IMG/VR virus record: IMGVR_UViG_3300008266_000015
Strand: one strand, 5' to 3'
DNA: 64,000 bases
Source: a virus
The translations under genes were made by a program, and so were the position numbers. Below are positions 131-8,567 of this stretch, piece by piece. The stretch's first letter is position 1. Every line of letters starts with the position of its first letter. The notes below the pieces were generated by a model, which was given only the letters and a program-made list of their open reading frames with translations, had not been told where the DNA came from and searched no databases.

Positions 131-345
131 TAAGTAACCGGCCCCAGTAACGGGGGATAAGTTAAAGTGAAAAGGACGGTTCAAACAGGGGAGCCATTTA
201 GGGACAAGAGGATGAAATAAGCCCGCCCTCGGCTCACCCGATTTAAAGGTGGACATAATAGCCACCACGCGAAGGCCGGCCAACTCATAGAGTCGTCGAG
301 CCACTTAAACCATGGAGGTCCACAACGTTGGGCCTCCATTTATTT
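131..345 (+). ncRNA. Candidate structured non-coding RNA
   Basis: GC-rich island between the promoter at 95-123 and the terminator at 312-345; no + strand ORF; several complementary segments. Confidence 0.5.
312..345 (+). terminator. Intrinsic terminator-like hairpin
   Basis: ATGGAGGTCC-loop-GGGCCTCCAT followed by TTATTT. Confidence 0.65.
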
Positions 346-3835: not shown

Positions 3836-4342
3836 ATGAATGGTAGGACATTATGGGTTAAAGAGGAAATTCTTGAGAGAGTTTCCTCCATTGTTGGGTA
3901 TTTTAATAATACTTATTCACCAAATGATCAAGTTTTATTTGCTCCTGTTTTACAAGGGGCAATTCCTTTTTTCTCAGATATTGCTAAAGGAGTTACATTT
4001 GATCCTTTTATTGAATATATTGGTATTAGTTCATATAAAGGTGAACAACAGAAAGAATTCAATCTATATCGTATGATTGATACCAAATATATTTCGGGTA
4101 AAATAGTATGGTTATTTGATGATATTGCTGATTCAGGAAATACGTTAAATTATTTATCTAAGTTGTTATACCAACGGGGAGCACAAGATGTAAAGACATG
4201 TGTGTTAATTAAAAAACAGCATTGTAAATGTAATATTGATCAATTTGGATTTGAAATGGGTGATGGTTGGTTATGGGGTTATGGTATGGATTCACCAAAT
4301 GGAAAAGGACGCTCATTAAATAATATATATTGTAAATTATGA
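3836..4342 (+). CDS. hpt: Hypoxanthine/guanine phosphoribosyltransferase
   Basis: VLQGAIPF, ISSY, LFDDIADSGNTL PRPP-binding loop, WGYGMD. Confidence 0.9.
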   Translation: MNGRTLWVKEEILERVSSIVGYFNNTYSPNDQVLFAPVLQGAIPFFSDIAKGVTFDPFIEYIGISSYKGEQQKEFNLYRMIDTKYISGKIVWLFDDIADSGNTLNYLSKLLYQRGAQDVKTCVLIKKQHCKCNIDQFGFEMGDGWLWGYGMDSPNGKGRSLNNIYCKL

Positions 4343-4827
4343 AAAAAATCCCTTCAATTAAATCTATTTCGCTTGAGGAAGCAGAACAATATATTTCTCA
4401 AGATGAGGATGTGCAAAATTCTTCTATTTATTATTTTACATTAACCCCACAAGAACCACCTCCGGGTGTTGATGGGAGTTGGGATGTAACTTATTATACT
4501 AGAAGACCAAAAAAGACTGTTCCAACTGATGGAATGGGGGATGATATTATTTATGTTTTATCAAATCCCTCAATTCCTGGTTTATTAAAAATAGGATACA
4601 CACGTAAGGAAATTGGTATCCGAATTAAGGATCTTTCTAAAGCAACAGGAGTTCCAACACCATTTAAATTGGAGTACGTGTTCAGATGTTATAATGGACT
4701 ACAGCTTGAGAGTGATATACACAAGCATTTAAAAGATTTTAGACCGAACAATTATCGCGAATTTTTTGATGTAACATTAAATCAAGCTATAGAAGCTGTC
4801 AAACATTTAGGAGAAAGTTATATTTAA
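4339..4827 (+). CDS. T5orf172-type GIY-YIG domain protein
   Basis: IYVLSNPSIPGLLKIGYT...R...ATGVPTPF...E...H...REFF. Confidence 0.85.
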   Translation: MKKIPSIKSISLEEAEQYISQDEDVQNSSIYYFTLTPQEPPPGVDGSWDVTYYTRRPKKTVPTDGMGDDIIYVLSNPSIPGLLKIGYTRKEIGIRIKDLSKATGVPTPFKLEYVFRCYNGLQLESDIHKHLKDFRPNNYREFFDVTLNQAIEAVKHLGESYI

Positions 4828-4828
4828 C

Positions 4829-4858
4829 TTGGGATATTGAATATTTATTATTATATTA
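4829..4858 (+). promoter_or_regulatory. Early-type promoter
   Basis: TTGG-N19-TATATTA. Confidence 0.6.
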
Positions 4859-4883
4859 AAATTAAAACAAATTAAAATTTATT

Positions 4884-5048
4884 ATGAAACAATTTATTAT
4901 TCTAGCTGCACTAATTACACTTTTAACTGCATGTGGTGGAACCAAAACCGAAACTATTTCTGTAACTGATTCTGTTACTATTGATACGGTTACTGTTGAT
5001 ACTACTATTATTGTTAAAGATTCAGTTAAAACTGATACTATAAAGTAA
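4884..5048 (+). CDS. Unannotated 54-aa lipoprotein rich in D-S/T-x sequons
   Basis: MKQFIILAALITLLTA-C-GGTKTETISVTDSVTIDTVTVDTTIIVKDSVKTDTIK; lipobox LTAC. Confidence 0.8.
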   Translation: MKQFIILAALITLLTACGGTKTETISVTDSVTIDTVTVDTTIIVKDSVKTDTIK

Positions 5049-5071
5049 TTAGTATACTAGTGTTTGATTTG

Positions 5072-5119
5072 AATTGCTTCATATTTATGGGAAACCATAT
5101 ATGAGGCAATTTTTGTTTT
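5072..5119 (+). terminator. Intrinsic terminator
   Basis: AATTGCTTCATAT..ATGG-GAAA-CCAT..ATGAGGCAATT followed by T-tract. Confidence 0.65.
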
Positions 5120-5135
5120 AAAATAATTAAGTAAA

Positions 5136-5642
5136 ATGTTTTTCAAAAATAAATTAACTTTAATTGATAAATCTATTAATTTAGTAGGTTATTTATTTAA
5201 AACGCTTTTTGATATTTTTAAAATGAATATAAATAACATATTTAACTTATTTAGCGATCAACCTCAAGATGATGAAAATGAATTATTAATAGATTTTTCA
5301 GAACATCCTTTTTATTGGATTGGAGGGTTTAATAAAATAATTTCTAATCATTCTTATTTTAAACAATATGCTGTTAAAATGTTTAAGGATGCTTCTCCAA
5401 GTTTAGATGAGGATGAAGTTGAACGAGCTGGGAACCATATAATGTTTGAAAAAGCTTGGGAGTATATAAAAGATATAAAATTAAATAACCAATTTCATAT
5501 TGAGTGTTTAAGGAAAAAAGCATCTTTTGGGTTTTGTAAAAACTTAGAGTATGCAGTACAACATTTTGAACAATTTGAAGAATATGAAAAATGTGCCTTA
5601 CTTAAAGGTATTGAAATTAAAGTTAAAGAATTTTTAAAGTAA
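5136..5642 (+). CDS. Hypothetical protein with C-terminal UVR-like motif (start may be 5223)
   Basis: FEQFEEYEKCALLK resembles the UvrB/C interaction motif. Confidence 0.65.
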   Translation: MFFKNKLTLIDKSINLVGYLFKTLFDIFKMNINNIFNLFSDQPQDDENELLIDFSEHPFYWIGGFNKIISNHSYFKQYAVKMFKDASPSLDEDEVERAGNHIMFEKAWEYIKDIKLNNQFHIECLRKKASFGFCKNLEYAVQHFEQFEEYEKCALLKGIEIKVKEFLK

Positions 5643-5644
5643 AC

Positions 5645-5674
5645 TTGATTGCTTATTCTTTTACCCGTATATTA
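5645..5674 (+). promoter_or_regulatory. Early-type promoter variant
   Basis: TTGA-N19-TATATTA; overlaps hairpin ACCCGTA...TACGGGT. Confidence 0.45.
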
Positions 5675-5722
5675 AAATTACGGGTTTTAAAAAACAGAAT
5701 AAGTAATTAAAGGAGATGGGGA

Positions 5723-6247
5723 TTAGTTATGAGTGGGATATTGGGAGAGTAGACGGGGGAAATATGTTTTATCTTTGATTGGAAAAACATATTTATTTTC
5801 TGTTACATAATTGTGGATCTTAATAGAATCTAAAGGATAAGTTTTAAGTAAAGCAGTTTGATATTTAGATATACTGAATATGGCTAGTATTTTGCAGCTC
5901 ATTCTTTTAGTACTTCCTATTATAATAGGTTGTTGTGTTTTAGGATATAATGTTATTATGGTAGAATCTGAGCAGTATGTTTCTAATGGTTCTCCTTTTT
6001 TAAATAAAATAGTATGAGACATTTTGTCTTTATAATATAATTTTATATTCTTTACAAATTCAAACCCACGTATATCTATATTTTCAACTATTGGTTGGAT
6101 TATAAAAACAGAATCATTATCCAGTACTAATGGAAAAGGCTGAGGAAGATCATTTTTGGTTTTTTTTATACTATCATCTATAGTTGTTAGATTCATAAAT
6201 AATCCAAAACATATTATTACCAGAAAAGTTGAGATGGAGAATTTCAT
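5723..6247 (-). CDS. Membrane-anchored/secreted hypothetical protein
   Basis: N-terminal hydrophobic helix; the only credible minus-strand gene; late motif on the minus strand upstream. Confidence 0.7.
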   Translation of the reverse strand: MKFSISTFLVIICFGLFMNLTTIDDSIKKTKNDLPQPFPLVLDNDSVFIIQPIVENIDIRGFEFVKNIKLYYKDKMSHTILFKKGEPLETYCSDSTIITLYPKTQQPIIIGSTKRMSCKILAIFSISKYQTALLKTYPLDSIKIHNYVTENKYVFPIKDKTYFPRLLSQYPTHN

Positions 6248-6264
6248 GTATTGATGTGTTTAAA

Positions 6265-6272
6265 TATAAATA
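6265..6272 (-). promoter_or_regulatory. Late promoter motif TATTTATA (minus strand)
   Basis: Lies 18 nt upstream of the minus-strand ATG at 6247. Confidence 0.6.
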
Positions 6273-6292
6273 TAAGATCTTTTATTTTTAAC

Positions 6293-6322
6293 TTGGAATC
6301 CAAAAAATTATTTTATATATTA
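6293..6322 (+). promoter_or_regulatory. Early-type promoter
   Basis: TTGG-N19-TATATTA. Confidence 0.7.
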
Positions 6323-6348
6323 TTTCCTAAATAAAAATTTTATATATT

Positions 6349-6543
6349 ATGAGAAATAGAGAATCAGTATTACGCAAACTAGATAGTTTGGAGTCTAATA
6401 CTAACAAATTAGTTATGGCCTTAAATCAAGGTAACCGTGAATTATGTTATGAAGTTATTGAAGAATTCAGATCTCAAATTGAACAACTTAAAATGTATGT
6501 TGAATCTGAACCTATTTCAGGTAGTGAATTAAATCGAATCTAA
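6349..6543 (+). CDS. Small coiled-coil hypothetical protein
   Basis: ORF behind promoter 6293. Confidence 0.7.
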   Translation: MRNRESVLRKLDSLESNTNKLVMALNQGNRELCYEVIEEFRSQIEQLKMYVESEPISGSELNRI

Positions 6544-6559
6544 TTTAAAAATAAAAGTT

Positions 6560-7351
6560 ATGAAATTAACAGCCGAACAAATCCAAGATAATTGGGATAA
6601 ATTATTATCCAGAATTGATGCCTATATTACTGAGCCTCGTCGTTCAAATTTAAAAGCATTCTATGAAAAATACTCAGAACGTCTAATGTTGATGCCTGCT
6701 GCTCACAAGAAAGAATACCATAATGCATTCCCAGGAGGATATGTAGACCATGTTCTTCGTGTAATTGATTGTGCTCTTAAATTAAATAATATTTGGGTTG
6801 AAATGGGAGTAGATGATACTACATATACTATTGAAGAATTAGTATTTTCAGCATTAAACCATGATTTAGGTAAAATAGGAGATGAAGAAAATGAATCTTA
6901 TATCCCACAAACTGATCAATGGCGTAGAGATAAATTAGGTGAAGATTATATGTTTAATACTAAAGTACAATTTGCCTCAGTACCAGATCGTGGTTTATTT
7001 TTACTTCAATCTCATGGTATTCCTTATACATTTAATGAAATGATTGCAATCCAAACCCATGATGGATTATATGATGAAGGTAACAAAAAATATTTAATGA
7101 CATTCATGCCAGAACAAAGACCACGTACTTCATTACCATATATTGTACATCAAGCTGATTTAATGGCTGCAAGAATTGAATTTGAAAAAGAATGGTTACC
7201 AAAATTTAAAAGTAACTTGGCTCCAACAAAAAATAATTATACATTGACTGGCAAGCAGCCAGTTAACAAAGCTTCTATTAAAACTAAAGCCTTAGGTAAT
7301 ATTCAAAGTGAAGGTTTAAAAAATGTAATGAATGATTTTTTTAAAGCTTAA
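6560..7351 (+). CDS. HD-domain phosphohydrolase (YhaM-like)
   Basis: YHNAFPGGYVDH...HDLGK...HDG...HQAD. Confidence 0.85.
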   Translation: MKLTAEQIQDNWDKLLSRIDAYITEPRRSNLKAFYEKYSERLMLMPAAHKKEYHNAFPGGYVDHVLRVIDCALKLNNIWVEMGVDDTTYTIEELVFSALNHDLGKIGDEENESYIPQTDQWRRDKLGEDYMFNTKVQFASVPDRGLFLLQSHGIPYTFNEMIAIQTHDGLYDEGNKKYLMTFMPEQRPRTSLPYIVHQADLMAARIEFEKEWLPKFKSNLAPTKNNYTLTGKQPVNKASIKTKALGNIQSEGLKNVMNDFFKA

Positions 7352-7376
7352 GTTAATTTTTTAATTTTTTAACATT

Positions 7377-7407
7377 AAAGGTTGTGATTAAGTTCATAAC
7401 CTTTTTT
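7377..7407 (+). terminator. Terminator-like hairpin
   Basis: AAAGGTTGTGA-loop-TCATAACCTTT plus T-run. Confidence 0.55.
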
Positions 7408-7418
7408 AATTTAACAAC

Positions 7419-7688
7419 ATGGTAACAACAATTATTATTCTTTCTCTTATTATAGTAATATTAATTTTTACTACTTATAATTTACTTAAGAAAAACGAAA
7501 AATGTGAAGATGTAATTAAATCATATGAAAAATATATGATTAATTTATCTACTGCAATTGAACTCTCAGATGCAAAACTCAAAGAAATTGATTCTAAGGG
7601 TACATTTGAAGGAGATGATGAGGTAGGTTTTTTCTTTAAAACATTACAATTTATACAAGAACAATTAAATGATTTTAAAGTAAAATAA
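7419..7688 (+). CDS. Single-TM hypothetical protein
   Basis: N-terminal TM followed by coiled coil. Confidence 0.75.
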   Translation: MVTTIIILSLIIVILIFTTYNLLKKNEKCEDVIKSYEKYMINLSTAIELSDAKLKEIDSKGTFEGDDEVGFFFKTLQFIQEQLNDFKVK

Positions 7689-7691
7689 TAT

Positions 7692-8567
7692 ATGTCTAAA
7701 AATTACTTTACTCAGGAAACTGAAGACGCAATCGTAGCTTATAATTTAAGTGAAGATTTTAATGAAAAAAGTCGAATATATAATGATAGAATACATTATG
7801 CCTTTTTTAAACTTACTCAAAATATAATTCATACATTTAAGTTTTATTATACTGAGGTTGAAAATATTGAAGATTTACAACATGAAATAATGATATTTTT
7901 ATTATCCAAAATTCATTTATATCACCATAGTAGAAGTATCCAGGATAGATTAGAAAAAATTATTATAAAAGAATTTAAAGAAAAATATACTTTGAATTTT
8001 ACTAATTATACAAATGATTCACCTACTGTAACTCAATCTCAAATTGATCAGTTTATTTCAAAATTAAATGTATCTGAGAAATGTATGGATAAGCTAAAAA
8101 AACTTACCCCTCCTAAAGCATATTCATATTTTGGAACTATTACTAAACGATGGTTAATTTTATATAACGATAATAATTATAAAAAACGCGTAAATTCAGT
8201 CCCAGTATCCACAATAGAGGAAGATAATGGGCATTCTTATGTGATAGAAGAAAATAATTCACCAAGTGATAAATTGTCTCATAATGACAAAATATCTTTA
8301 TTTACAGATTTATATGTTGAGTATTGTACCAATAATATTTATACTCTATTTCCTAAGGAAGCGGATGCCAAAATAGCAGATGCTATATTAGAATTATTTA
8401 GAAAAAGAGATAATTTAGAAATTTTTAATAAAAAAGCATTATACATTTATATACGAGAAATGATAGATGCTAAAACACCTAAAATTACTAAAATAGCCGA
8501 TCGATTGTATATTATATTTAAAAAGGGCTATATCTTTTATTTAGAAAACGGATATATAAAATTTTAA
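7692..8567 (+). CDS. T4 gp55-like late sigma factor
   Basis: N-terminal NYF, region-2-like KAYSYFGTITKRWLI (compare gp55 AYFTQ); late genes start immediately downstream. Confidence 0.65.
   Translation: MSKNYFTQETEDAIVAYNLSEDFNEKSRIYNDRIHYAFFKLTQNIIHTFKFYYTEVENIEDLQHEIMIFLLSKIHLYHHSRSIQDRLEKIIIKEFKEKYTLNFTNYTNDSPTVTQSQIDQFISKLNVSEKCMDKLKKLTPPKAYSYFGTITKRWLILYNDNNYKKRVNSVPVSTIEEDNGHSYVIEENNSPSDKLSHNDKISLFTDLYVEYCTNNIYTLFPKEADAKIADAILELFRKRDNLEIFNKKALYIYIREMIDAKTPKITKIADRLYIIFKKGYIFYLENGYIKF

Follow-up and report, generated by a model that had tools for sequence, protein, structure and literature searches.

A structured small RNA with covarying helices, encoded beside a short peptide gene in uncultured T4-like phages

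Structured RNAs of phages, beyond their tRNAs, are poorly understood, and two small RNAs of phage T4 have been without a known role for decades. [quoted passage not shown] A screen for structured RNAs in phages has yielded 10,006 candidates (Fremin, Bhatt and Kyrpides 2023, PMC10690425). The RNA described here, about 215 nt long, resembles those candidates and the Weinberg-type motifs of Rfam in having been found by covariation in intergenic phage sequence; unlike the motifs listed in Rfam, it matches no Rfam 15 model. Like RNAC and RNAD it is a small RNA of a T4-type phage that lies near a tRNA-like gene (about 640 nt upstream), a likeness in kind; unlike them, since they are processed from a tRNA precursor, it has a promoter and a terminator of its own.

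RNAIII of Staphylococcus aureus is a dual-function transcript with delta-haemolysin, and the mRNAs of type I toxins fold back. The present locus is like RNAIII in placing a short peptide ORF and a multi-hairpin RNA on one transcript, with unpaired loops on GC-rich hairpins; the analogy is one of layout and implies no homology, and here a promoter inside the transcript serves the RNA domain as well. The likeness to type I toxin-antitoxin systems lies in a hydrophobic peptide gene of about 33 aa beside a small RNA gene and in a long structured 3' region of the mRNA, and the difference in that the RNA is encoded on the same strand and its complementarity to the peptide message is no better than chance. 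With CsrB/RsmZ, 6S RNA and the Y RNAs it shares a logic only, the display of short single-stranded motifs between stable hairpins; it has no GGA motifs, no 6S-like bubbled long helix, no Ro-binding stem, no tRNA-like domain and no match to these families in Rfam.

The stretch of DNA that was analyzed (64 kb, hereafter the window) is part of a 93.8-kb JGI metagenome contig, to which the sequence just before the window (in locus L001) also belongs; the genes of the contig include a T4-type large terminase, a portal protein and a Gp23 capsid protein. Among cultured phages the best match of the Gp23 protein is found in Flavobacterium phage vB_FspM_immuto, with 58% identity. Positions 1–2700 of the window hold an array of very small genes, each preceded by a TAGG-N19-TATATT box. 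The window contains this box 11 times in exact form, always on the + strand; the number expected by chance is 0.62 (0/100 shuffles). It is presumed to mark a family of early phage promoters. The RNA occupies positions 131–346 of the + strand, from its inferred start to the end of the terminator U tail, and is supported by homologs found with nhmmer and a covariance model and by covariation. An initial annotation, made from the window alone, had described this segment as a GC-rich island in an AT-rich genome, bracketed by a promoter (95–123) and a terminator and lacking a + strand ORF. Each of these observations holds. The GC content is 0.50–0.56 across positions of about 150–300 and 0.15–0.30 in the flanks, and the + strand has no ORF inside 131–327 that opens with a start codon and reaches 20 aa.

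Other features of the same region were recorded alongside the RNA. The tRNA-like gene lies at L001:9017–9086, about 515–585 nt before the start of the window; it scores 36.8 bits with the Rfam tRNA model, was not called by ARAGORN, and is followed on its 3' side by about 450 nt (L001:9090–9540) with no convincing ORF. A second GC-rich island (GC 0.52–0.53) is found at 2700–2860, at the end of the small-gene array, and contains TACGTACGTA together with GC-rich palindromes; unlike the element at 131–346, it has no bracketing promoter box and terminator. Positions 1140–1478 encode a 112-aa protein with three to four repeats, built of RGRP cores and xRQxRLAE units, that has an AT-hook-like look.

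The promoter-like box upstream of the RNA reads TAGGATTCCA-N-GTATATT (95–123, + strand), from which we infer a start of the RNA at about 130–132; it is retained in six of the seven clear members of the family introduced below. The 3' end is formed by an intrinsic terminator (312–346, + strand; stem 312–321/330–339, loop 322–329, U-rich tail), in which the hairpin at 312–339 has 11 pairs and is followed by a T-rich tail. The next copy of the TAGG-N19-TATATT box (348–376, + strand) lies outside the RNA and belongs to an 87-aa gene at 401–664. Directly 5' of the RNA lies the gene of a 33-aa hydrophobic peptide with one predicted helix, which starts at L001:9596, 5 nt before the window, and whose 3' part occupies positions 1–97 of the + strand; within the window the peptide reads MKKAIQSPVILIPTWFITIYYVGLVLSIIFTQS. 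The gene is called as 33 aa in L002–L008, shows conservative substitutions among relatives, and a hydrophobic peptide gene of about this length is found directly 5' of the RNA in all eight loci, where the downstream gene varies. The TAG stop codon of the peptide (95–97) provides the first three bases of the promoter box of the RNA. The same double use of the TAG, by which promoter and gene end are fused, is seen in the window, L010, L072 and L078.

No terminator was found between the peptide gene and the RNA, the first one being that of the RNA itself (312–346), and transcripts from the peptide promoter should therefore run through the RNA to position 346. In L072, about 22 nt that include the -10 part of the box of the RNA are deleted (L072:3430–3452) and the RNA itself is intact, so that in this phage it could be produced only as a 3' extension of the peptide transcript. 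The RNA is thus probably made in two ways, from its own box at 95–123 or by transcription of the 33-aa peptide gene, whose message would end in it. The initial annotation had taken it for a stand-alone structured non-coding RNA filling a single cassette; covariation among homologs and the RNA's own promoter and terminator bear out the first part of that description, and the missing terminator after the 33-aa gene together with the L072 deletion shows that it is not only a solitary cassette. Of the sequence words sampled, two metatranscriptome runs contained small fractions, 0.18 and 0.13.

Homologs were reached along two routes, since the eight contigs with an identical downstream protein are identical in the RNA region too and give no variation. 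Through the neighboring 205-aa protein, IMG/VR yielded L009/L010, two contigs with one and the same variant, which is about 77% identical to the window (blastn; nhmmer E 3e-38). Variants of the downstream 87-aa protein, followed by an exact look-up, led to L072, L073, L074, L075 and L078/L079. In this way six clear homologs were obtained from contigs of related phages (nhmmer E 3e-38 to 7e-06; covariance model), and with the window they make seven distinct sequences of 150–215 nt. The gene on the 3' side of the RNA differs among the members, being the 87-aa gene in the window and an 83-aa gene in L072; an 89-aa gene is located there in five of the seven clear members, and in this phage it is found 2.8 kb upstream. 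The RNA is retained as a unit while the neighboring genes shuffle. An eighth contig, L070, carries an RNA-like element at the corresponding position, preceded by a homolog of the small peptide gene and by the same promoter box. The element forms the same five hairpins and has blocks in common with L073, but it reaches only 11 bits with the covariance model R1 and is not reached by the seven-sequence model R2. By synteny, architecture and local identity to L073, L070 is a probable remote member.

The + strand of the window segment folds better than its shuffles (z -3.24, 0/200), and the - strand does so less well (z -2.34, 7/200 shuffles). When the seven sequences were folded singly, the same order of hairpins was obtained in each. 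A covariance model was built from the two most similar sequences, with the helices entered by hand, and was then used to align all seven. In this model-fitted alignment 98.7% of 237 cells form standard pairs. Changes on both sides were found in 14 of 40 pairs, against 3.6 ± 1.4 in shuffles (0/500), in a small sample of seven sequences from close relatives and on an alignment that was fitted to the structure, which favors the fold. Sliding the 3' partner by 1–3 columns leaves both-side changes in only one to four pairs. For helix P1 an unfitted MAFFT alignment of three sequences was available, in which four of the nine pairs are changed on both sides (3/500) and 92.6% of the cells pair, against 19–48% with the partner slid.

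The comparison between the window and its nearest variant, L072, is simpler. Fifteen substitutions separate the two in 160 aligned bases, and six of them make up three exact compensatory pairs (G193-C233 to A-U, A200-U229 to G-C and G252-C262 to A-U), with no pair broken; by random placement each of these two outcomes has P of about 3e-4. The helices concerned, P2a, P2b and P4, were already present in the single-sequence minimum free energy fold of the window, before the homologs were known. The alignment contains 16 G.U or U.G cells, where the other strand would have A.C mismatches, and the wobble G279.U296 in helix P5b is kept in all six scorable sequences; this marks the + strand as the folded one and favors an RNA over a DNA hairpin. 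Taken together, the comparisons among homologs demonstrate a non-coding structured RNA, read from the + strand, whose helices are under selection, and there is little doubt that 131–346 is a real, selected, structured RNA.

The fold is a row of separate hairpins joined by short single strands. The first domain (P1, 136–181) consists of a helix, 136–144/173–181, that closes a purine-rich loop of about 28 nt, and in the window the helix contains two mismatches, G141.A176 and C144.A173. In L075, L074 and L073 it is replaced by a short unrelated hairpin, and in L078 nothing takes its place. The second domain (P2, 188–239) is built of P2a (188–195/231–239, with A236 bulged), P2b (200–203/226–229) and P2c (210–211/222–223), and is capped by the loop AUGAAAUAAG (212–221), of which AAAUAA is invariant in the seven clear members. 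Seven pairs in P2a–c, helices 1–3 of the model, show both-side changes, and 96–100% of their cells pair. P2a is missing in L078 and L073, and L078 begins directly at P2b. According to these variants P1 and P2a are dispensable, and the core as read from the alignment extends from P2b to the terminator.

P2 is followed by the single-stranded linker GAUUUAAA (240–247), with the consensus UUWAAA; UU.AA is invariant in the seven-sequence alignment, and the linker is also present in L070. The hairpin P4 (GGUGG/CCACC, 248–252/262–266) displays a 9-nt loop, ACAUAAUAG. All of its cells pair, two of its five pairs are changed on both sides, and its counterpart is GACGGG/CCCGUC in L070 and GAUGGG/CCCAUC in L073. 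The next linker, ACGCGAA (267–273), belongs to an invariant stretch, GCG.AGG, that includes the first two bases of P5. The P5 hairpin (274–302) comprises P5a (274–276/300–302), P5b (277–280/295–298) and P5c (283–286/290–293). A bulged A is found in its 3' strand in the window and L072, and in its 5' strand in L010, L075, L074 and L078, and the P5a pair C276-G300 is G-C in L073. The last linker, ACUUAAACC (303–311), is conserved and is absent from L010; possible pairing partners are the 5' end (P0) and 242–246, segments that are A/U palindromes with hardly any variation. The terminator helix closes the row with all of its cells paired in the model-fitted alignment, and L073 and L070 have a different, unrelated terminator sequence at the same place.

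The helices are thus variable, and the linkers and the P2 loop nearly constant. The near-invariant A/U-rich single strands are UUCAAAC, UUUAAAG, ACGCGAA and CUUAAAC, to which the near-invariant GAAAUAA of the P2 loop is added; three of the five conserved single-stranded segments are variants of UUNAAA. Given the narrow distribution of the family, part of this invariance may reflect recent common descent alone.

The architecture that the initial annotation had drawn was mostly wrong, with two of its six pairings right, one possible, and three rejected together with a pseudoknot. GGTGG/CCACC is P4, where compensatory changes confirm it, and ACTC-ATA-GAGT corresponds to P5c, which is kept wherever the model aligns but shows no covariation. 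The pairings CCGGCC/GGCCGG (138–143/274–279), GGTTC/GAGCC (178–195) and GGCTC/GAGCC (231–235/298–302), the last of which would have crossed another helix as a pseudoknot, are discarded because they clash with the covarying helices P1 (136–144/173–181), P2a (188–195/231–239) and P5a (274–276/300–302) and are not kept in homologs. TAAGT/ACTTA (131–135/303–307), the P0 mentioned above, is possible. Its G134-C304 pair becomes A-U in L072 and G.U in L073, and its two segments are jointly absent in L010; against it, the helix has only 3–5 bp and is unpaired in L078.

The RNA was also proposed to belong to no recognized family, and this is confirmed for the collections searched. None of the 4227 models of Rfam 15 matches the window at its gathering threshold; at E<=10 over positions 1–700, the sole overlap is Xoo2, with 17.9 bits against a gathering threshold of 45 and covering the terminator only. 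Four homolog loci gave no Rfam match overlapping the RNA. ARAGORN finds no tRNA or tmRNA in the window, the Rfam tRNA model has no match to 131–346, and among the known ribozyme models none fits either the window or its homologs. The RNA constitutes a new family within the phage-encoded structured small RNAs, newness being measured against the Rfam 15 models.

As candidate roles the initial annotation had named a decoy, an antitoxin mimic and a ribozyme, and individual systems were compared with the locus as well. ToxI-like type III antitoxin RNAs are tandem direct repeats of about 36 nt with the gene of a ToxN/AbiQ-type endoribonuclease adjacent. Tandem Repeats Finder finds nothing in 60–420 (minimum score 30), which excludes a ToxI-like repeat antitoxin, and the neighbors of the RNA are the 33-aa peptide gene and the 87-aa protein gene, neither of them an evident nuclease. 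A PHROGs search with the neighboring small proteins, the 87-aa protein included, gave no match. A 6S RNA is at odds with a fold made of a row of separate hairpins and with the lack of an Rfam 6S match. For Y RNA/YrlA there is again no Rfam match, and a tblastn search with the L068 TROVE protein gave no match in the window or L001, which cover the contig beyond about its first 20 kb. A phi29-type pRNA has no Rfam match either, in a phage with a T4-type large terminase, portal and Gp23. Two short signals were set aside: L074 and L073 lack the mini-ORF AUG-AAA-UAA of the P2 loop, and the hammerhead-like GAUGA...GAAA and the twister-like AAGCCCG are resemblances by eye that no model supports.

With the RNA established, its action can be approached through the contrast between variable helices and constant single strands. 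Hairpins joined by near-invariant A/U-rich strands suggest that stiff helices display these segments to a protein; the RNA may bind a protein of the host or the phage early in infection, serving as a platform or as a decoy. This protein-binding or decoy reading, reached by elimination and from the conservation pattern, is tentative, and we consider it plausible rather than probable. The account as a whole, an RNA gene of about 215 nt with two production routes, a row of hairpins and protein display, is the best explanation and one we hold to be somewhat favored. Cleavage by an RNase, tertiary contacts or a seed function toward host mRNAs could explain the invariant A/U-rich linkers equally well. 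The last of these possibilities would make the element a trans-acting base-pairing sRNA, in which GAAAUAA of P2, ACAUAAUAG of P4 or the linkers pair with host messages during takeover. Regulatory sRNAs encoded by phages and prophages are known to act by base pairing, and the promoter, the terminator and conserved unpaired segments on stable hairpins would suit such a role. However, 73.6 kb of + strand sequence from this phage shows no excess of complements to the conserved unpaired segments, and antisense pairing with phage messages is not supported; the words are short and A/U-rich, with little specificity in an AT-rich host, and five segments exceed what a seed model needs. We regard a base-pairing sRNA as unlikely. 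A ligand-binding or catalytic RNA, be it an aptamer, a riboswitch governing terminator read-through or a self-cleaving ribozyme, would have the junctions as its pocket or active site. Variable helices with invariant junctions and loops, and dispensable outer helices, are typical of aptamers and ribozymes, and the position between promoter and terminator fits as well. It is nevertheless improbable: no Rfam riboswitch or ribozyme matches the window or its homologs at E<=10, and a transcription-terminating riboswitch in particular is disfavored because the sole anti-terminator-like pairing, 249–254/318–323, is broken in L072 (G252A, compensated inside P4), L073 and L070 have an unrelated terminator instead, and the gene that follows, which differs between homologs, is preceded here by a promoter box of its own.

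A further possibility joins the RNA to the peptide that precedes it, a predicted membrane peptide, as one functional unit. The RNA might then be a structured 3' part of the mRNA that controls stability or translation, part of a dual-function transcript, or an agent that neutralizes or partners the peptide. The presence of the gene 5' of the RNA in 8/8 loci, the lack of a terminator between them and the restriction of the L072 RNA to the peptide transcript speak for such a unit, and the small hydrophobic ORF next to the RNA is a feature of type I toxin-antitoxin systems. The antisense complementarity expected of a type I system is not seen, the RNA lying on the same strand and its duplex with the peptide mRNA having energies in the shuffle range in all four phages tested (-32.4 kcal/mol in the window against a shuffle mean of -33.8). 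Six of the seven clear members retain the internal promoter, which speaks for a free RNA; the linkage may be no more than synteny among close relatives, and the toxicity of the peptide is only putative. We judge such a unit less likely, if slightly, than base pairing with host messages. The same low weight is given to the idea that RNA and peptide form an undescribed early module, in which the RNA acts through its invariant junctions with or against the peptide, or that the RNA is a decoy or aptamer, a 'sponge', for a host defence protein or signaling nucleotide; phages use protein sponges against host defence signals. Two remaining readings deny the RNA altogether. A DNA-level site (protein-binding, origin-like or for recombination) or a functionless GC-rich remnant is suggested by the inverted repeats of the GC-rich island, set in an AT-rich genome where another palindrome cluster occurs at 2700–2860, but is very improbable given that wobble G.U pairs are kept on one strand only, that compensatory changes fall in five separate helices, that promoter box and terminator bracket the element in the right orientation, and that it is kept as a unit among shuffled genes. 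Hardly any credence is due to a small protein encoded by the minus-strand ORFs (122–304, 60 aa; 181–339, 52 aa), whose codon-periodic conservation the initial annotation had named as grounds for refuting the RNA. Both ORFs are open in the window, but they are not conserved. The 60-aa frame is cut to 45 aa by a 1-nt deletion in L072, and in the other homologs, which differ by indels of 1, 2 and 8 nt, the frame is broken by 1- and 2-nt indels and the longest open frames lie in other phases or on the other strand. The minus strand has no promoter box, and the substitutions track base pairs, not codons.

The family to which the RNA belongs appears restricted to a narrow clade of Flavobacterium-type T4-like phages, all uncultured and from fresh water. 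A blastn 'distant' search with 90–360 against 50,697 phage records gave no match, and an exact 18-mer scan of viral contigs returned 0 matches. A two-block pattern scan recovered the L009/L010 lineage only. Chance accounts for all 54 matches of a three-block pattern in metagenome contigs and for all nine matches of a looser core pattern in viral contigs; in bacterial genomes the looser core pattern gave at least 120 matches, and none among the 80 matches listed fits the model. The RNA was not detected in the relatives L068, L069, L071, L076 and L077, which have the same neighborhood, the upstream sequence of L069 and L071 being too short to inform. No RNA was found upstream of the distant homologs of the 89-aa neighbor gene (L213–L216), and Flavobacterium phage immuto, the closest cultured phage, gave no match. 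Within 73.6 kb of this phage, made up of the window and the preceding 9.6 kb, the RNA has no second copy.

On the present evidence the RNA is one more candidate among thousands, and a narrowly distributed one. It is a clean case for study, having its own promoter and terminator, a fold with compensatory mutations, deletion variants that define a minimal core, and a strict linkage to the peptide gene. The RNA biology of Bacteroidota differs from the Escherichia coli model, and should a host protein or a small molecule prove to be its binding partner, the RNA would represent an RNA-based tool for phage takeover or counter-defence in this phylum.

Several of the related contigs show further features of their own. 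In L068 a 531-aa gene, whose product has a weak Pfam match to TROVE (Ro60-like), is flanked by 20 tRNA genes, three upstream and 17 downstream; this TROVE/tRNA region lies at 3836–4382, 4763–6358 and 6439–8480 of the contig. A 316-nt stretch uncalled by the gene finder (L217:1198–1514) contains an apparent small membrane-protein ORF and is unrelated to the RNA. Unusually long Rfam tRNA matches (102–107 nt) occur within a few hundred bases of the RNA in L010 (4900–5001), L073 (1908–2012) and L078 (439–545).
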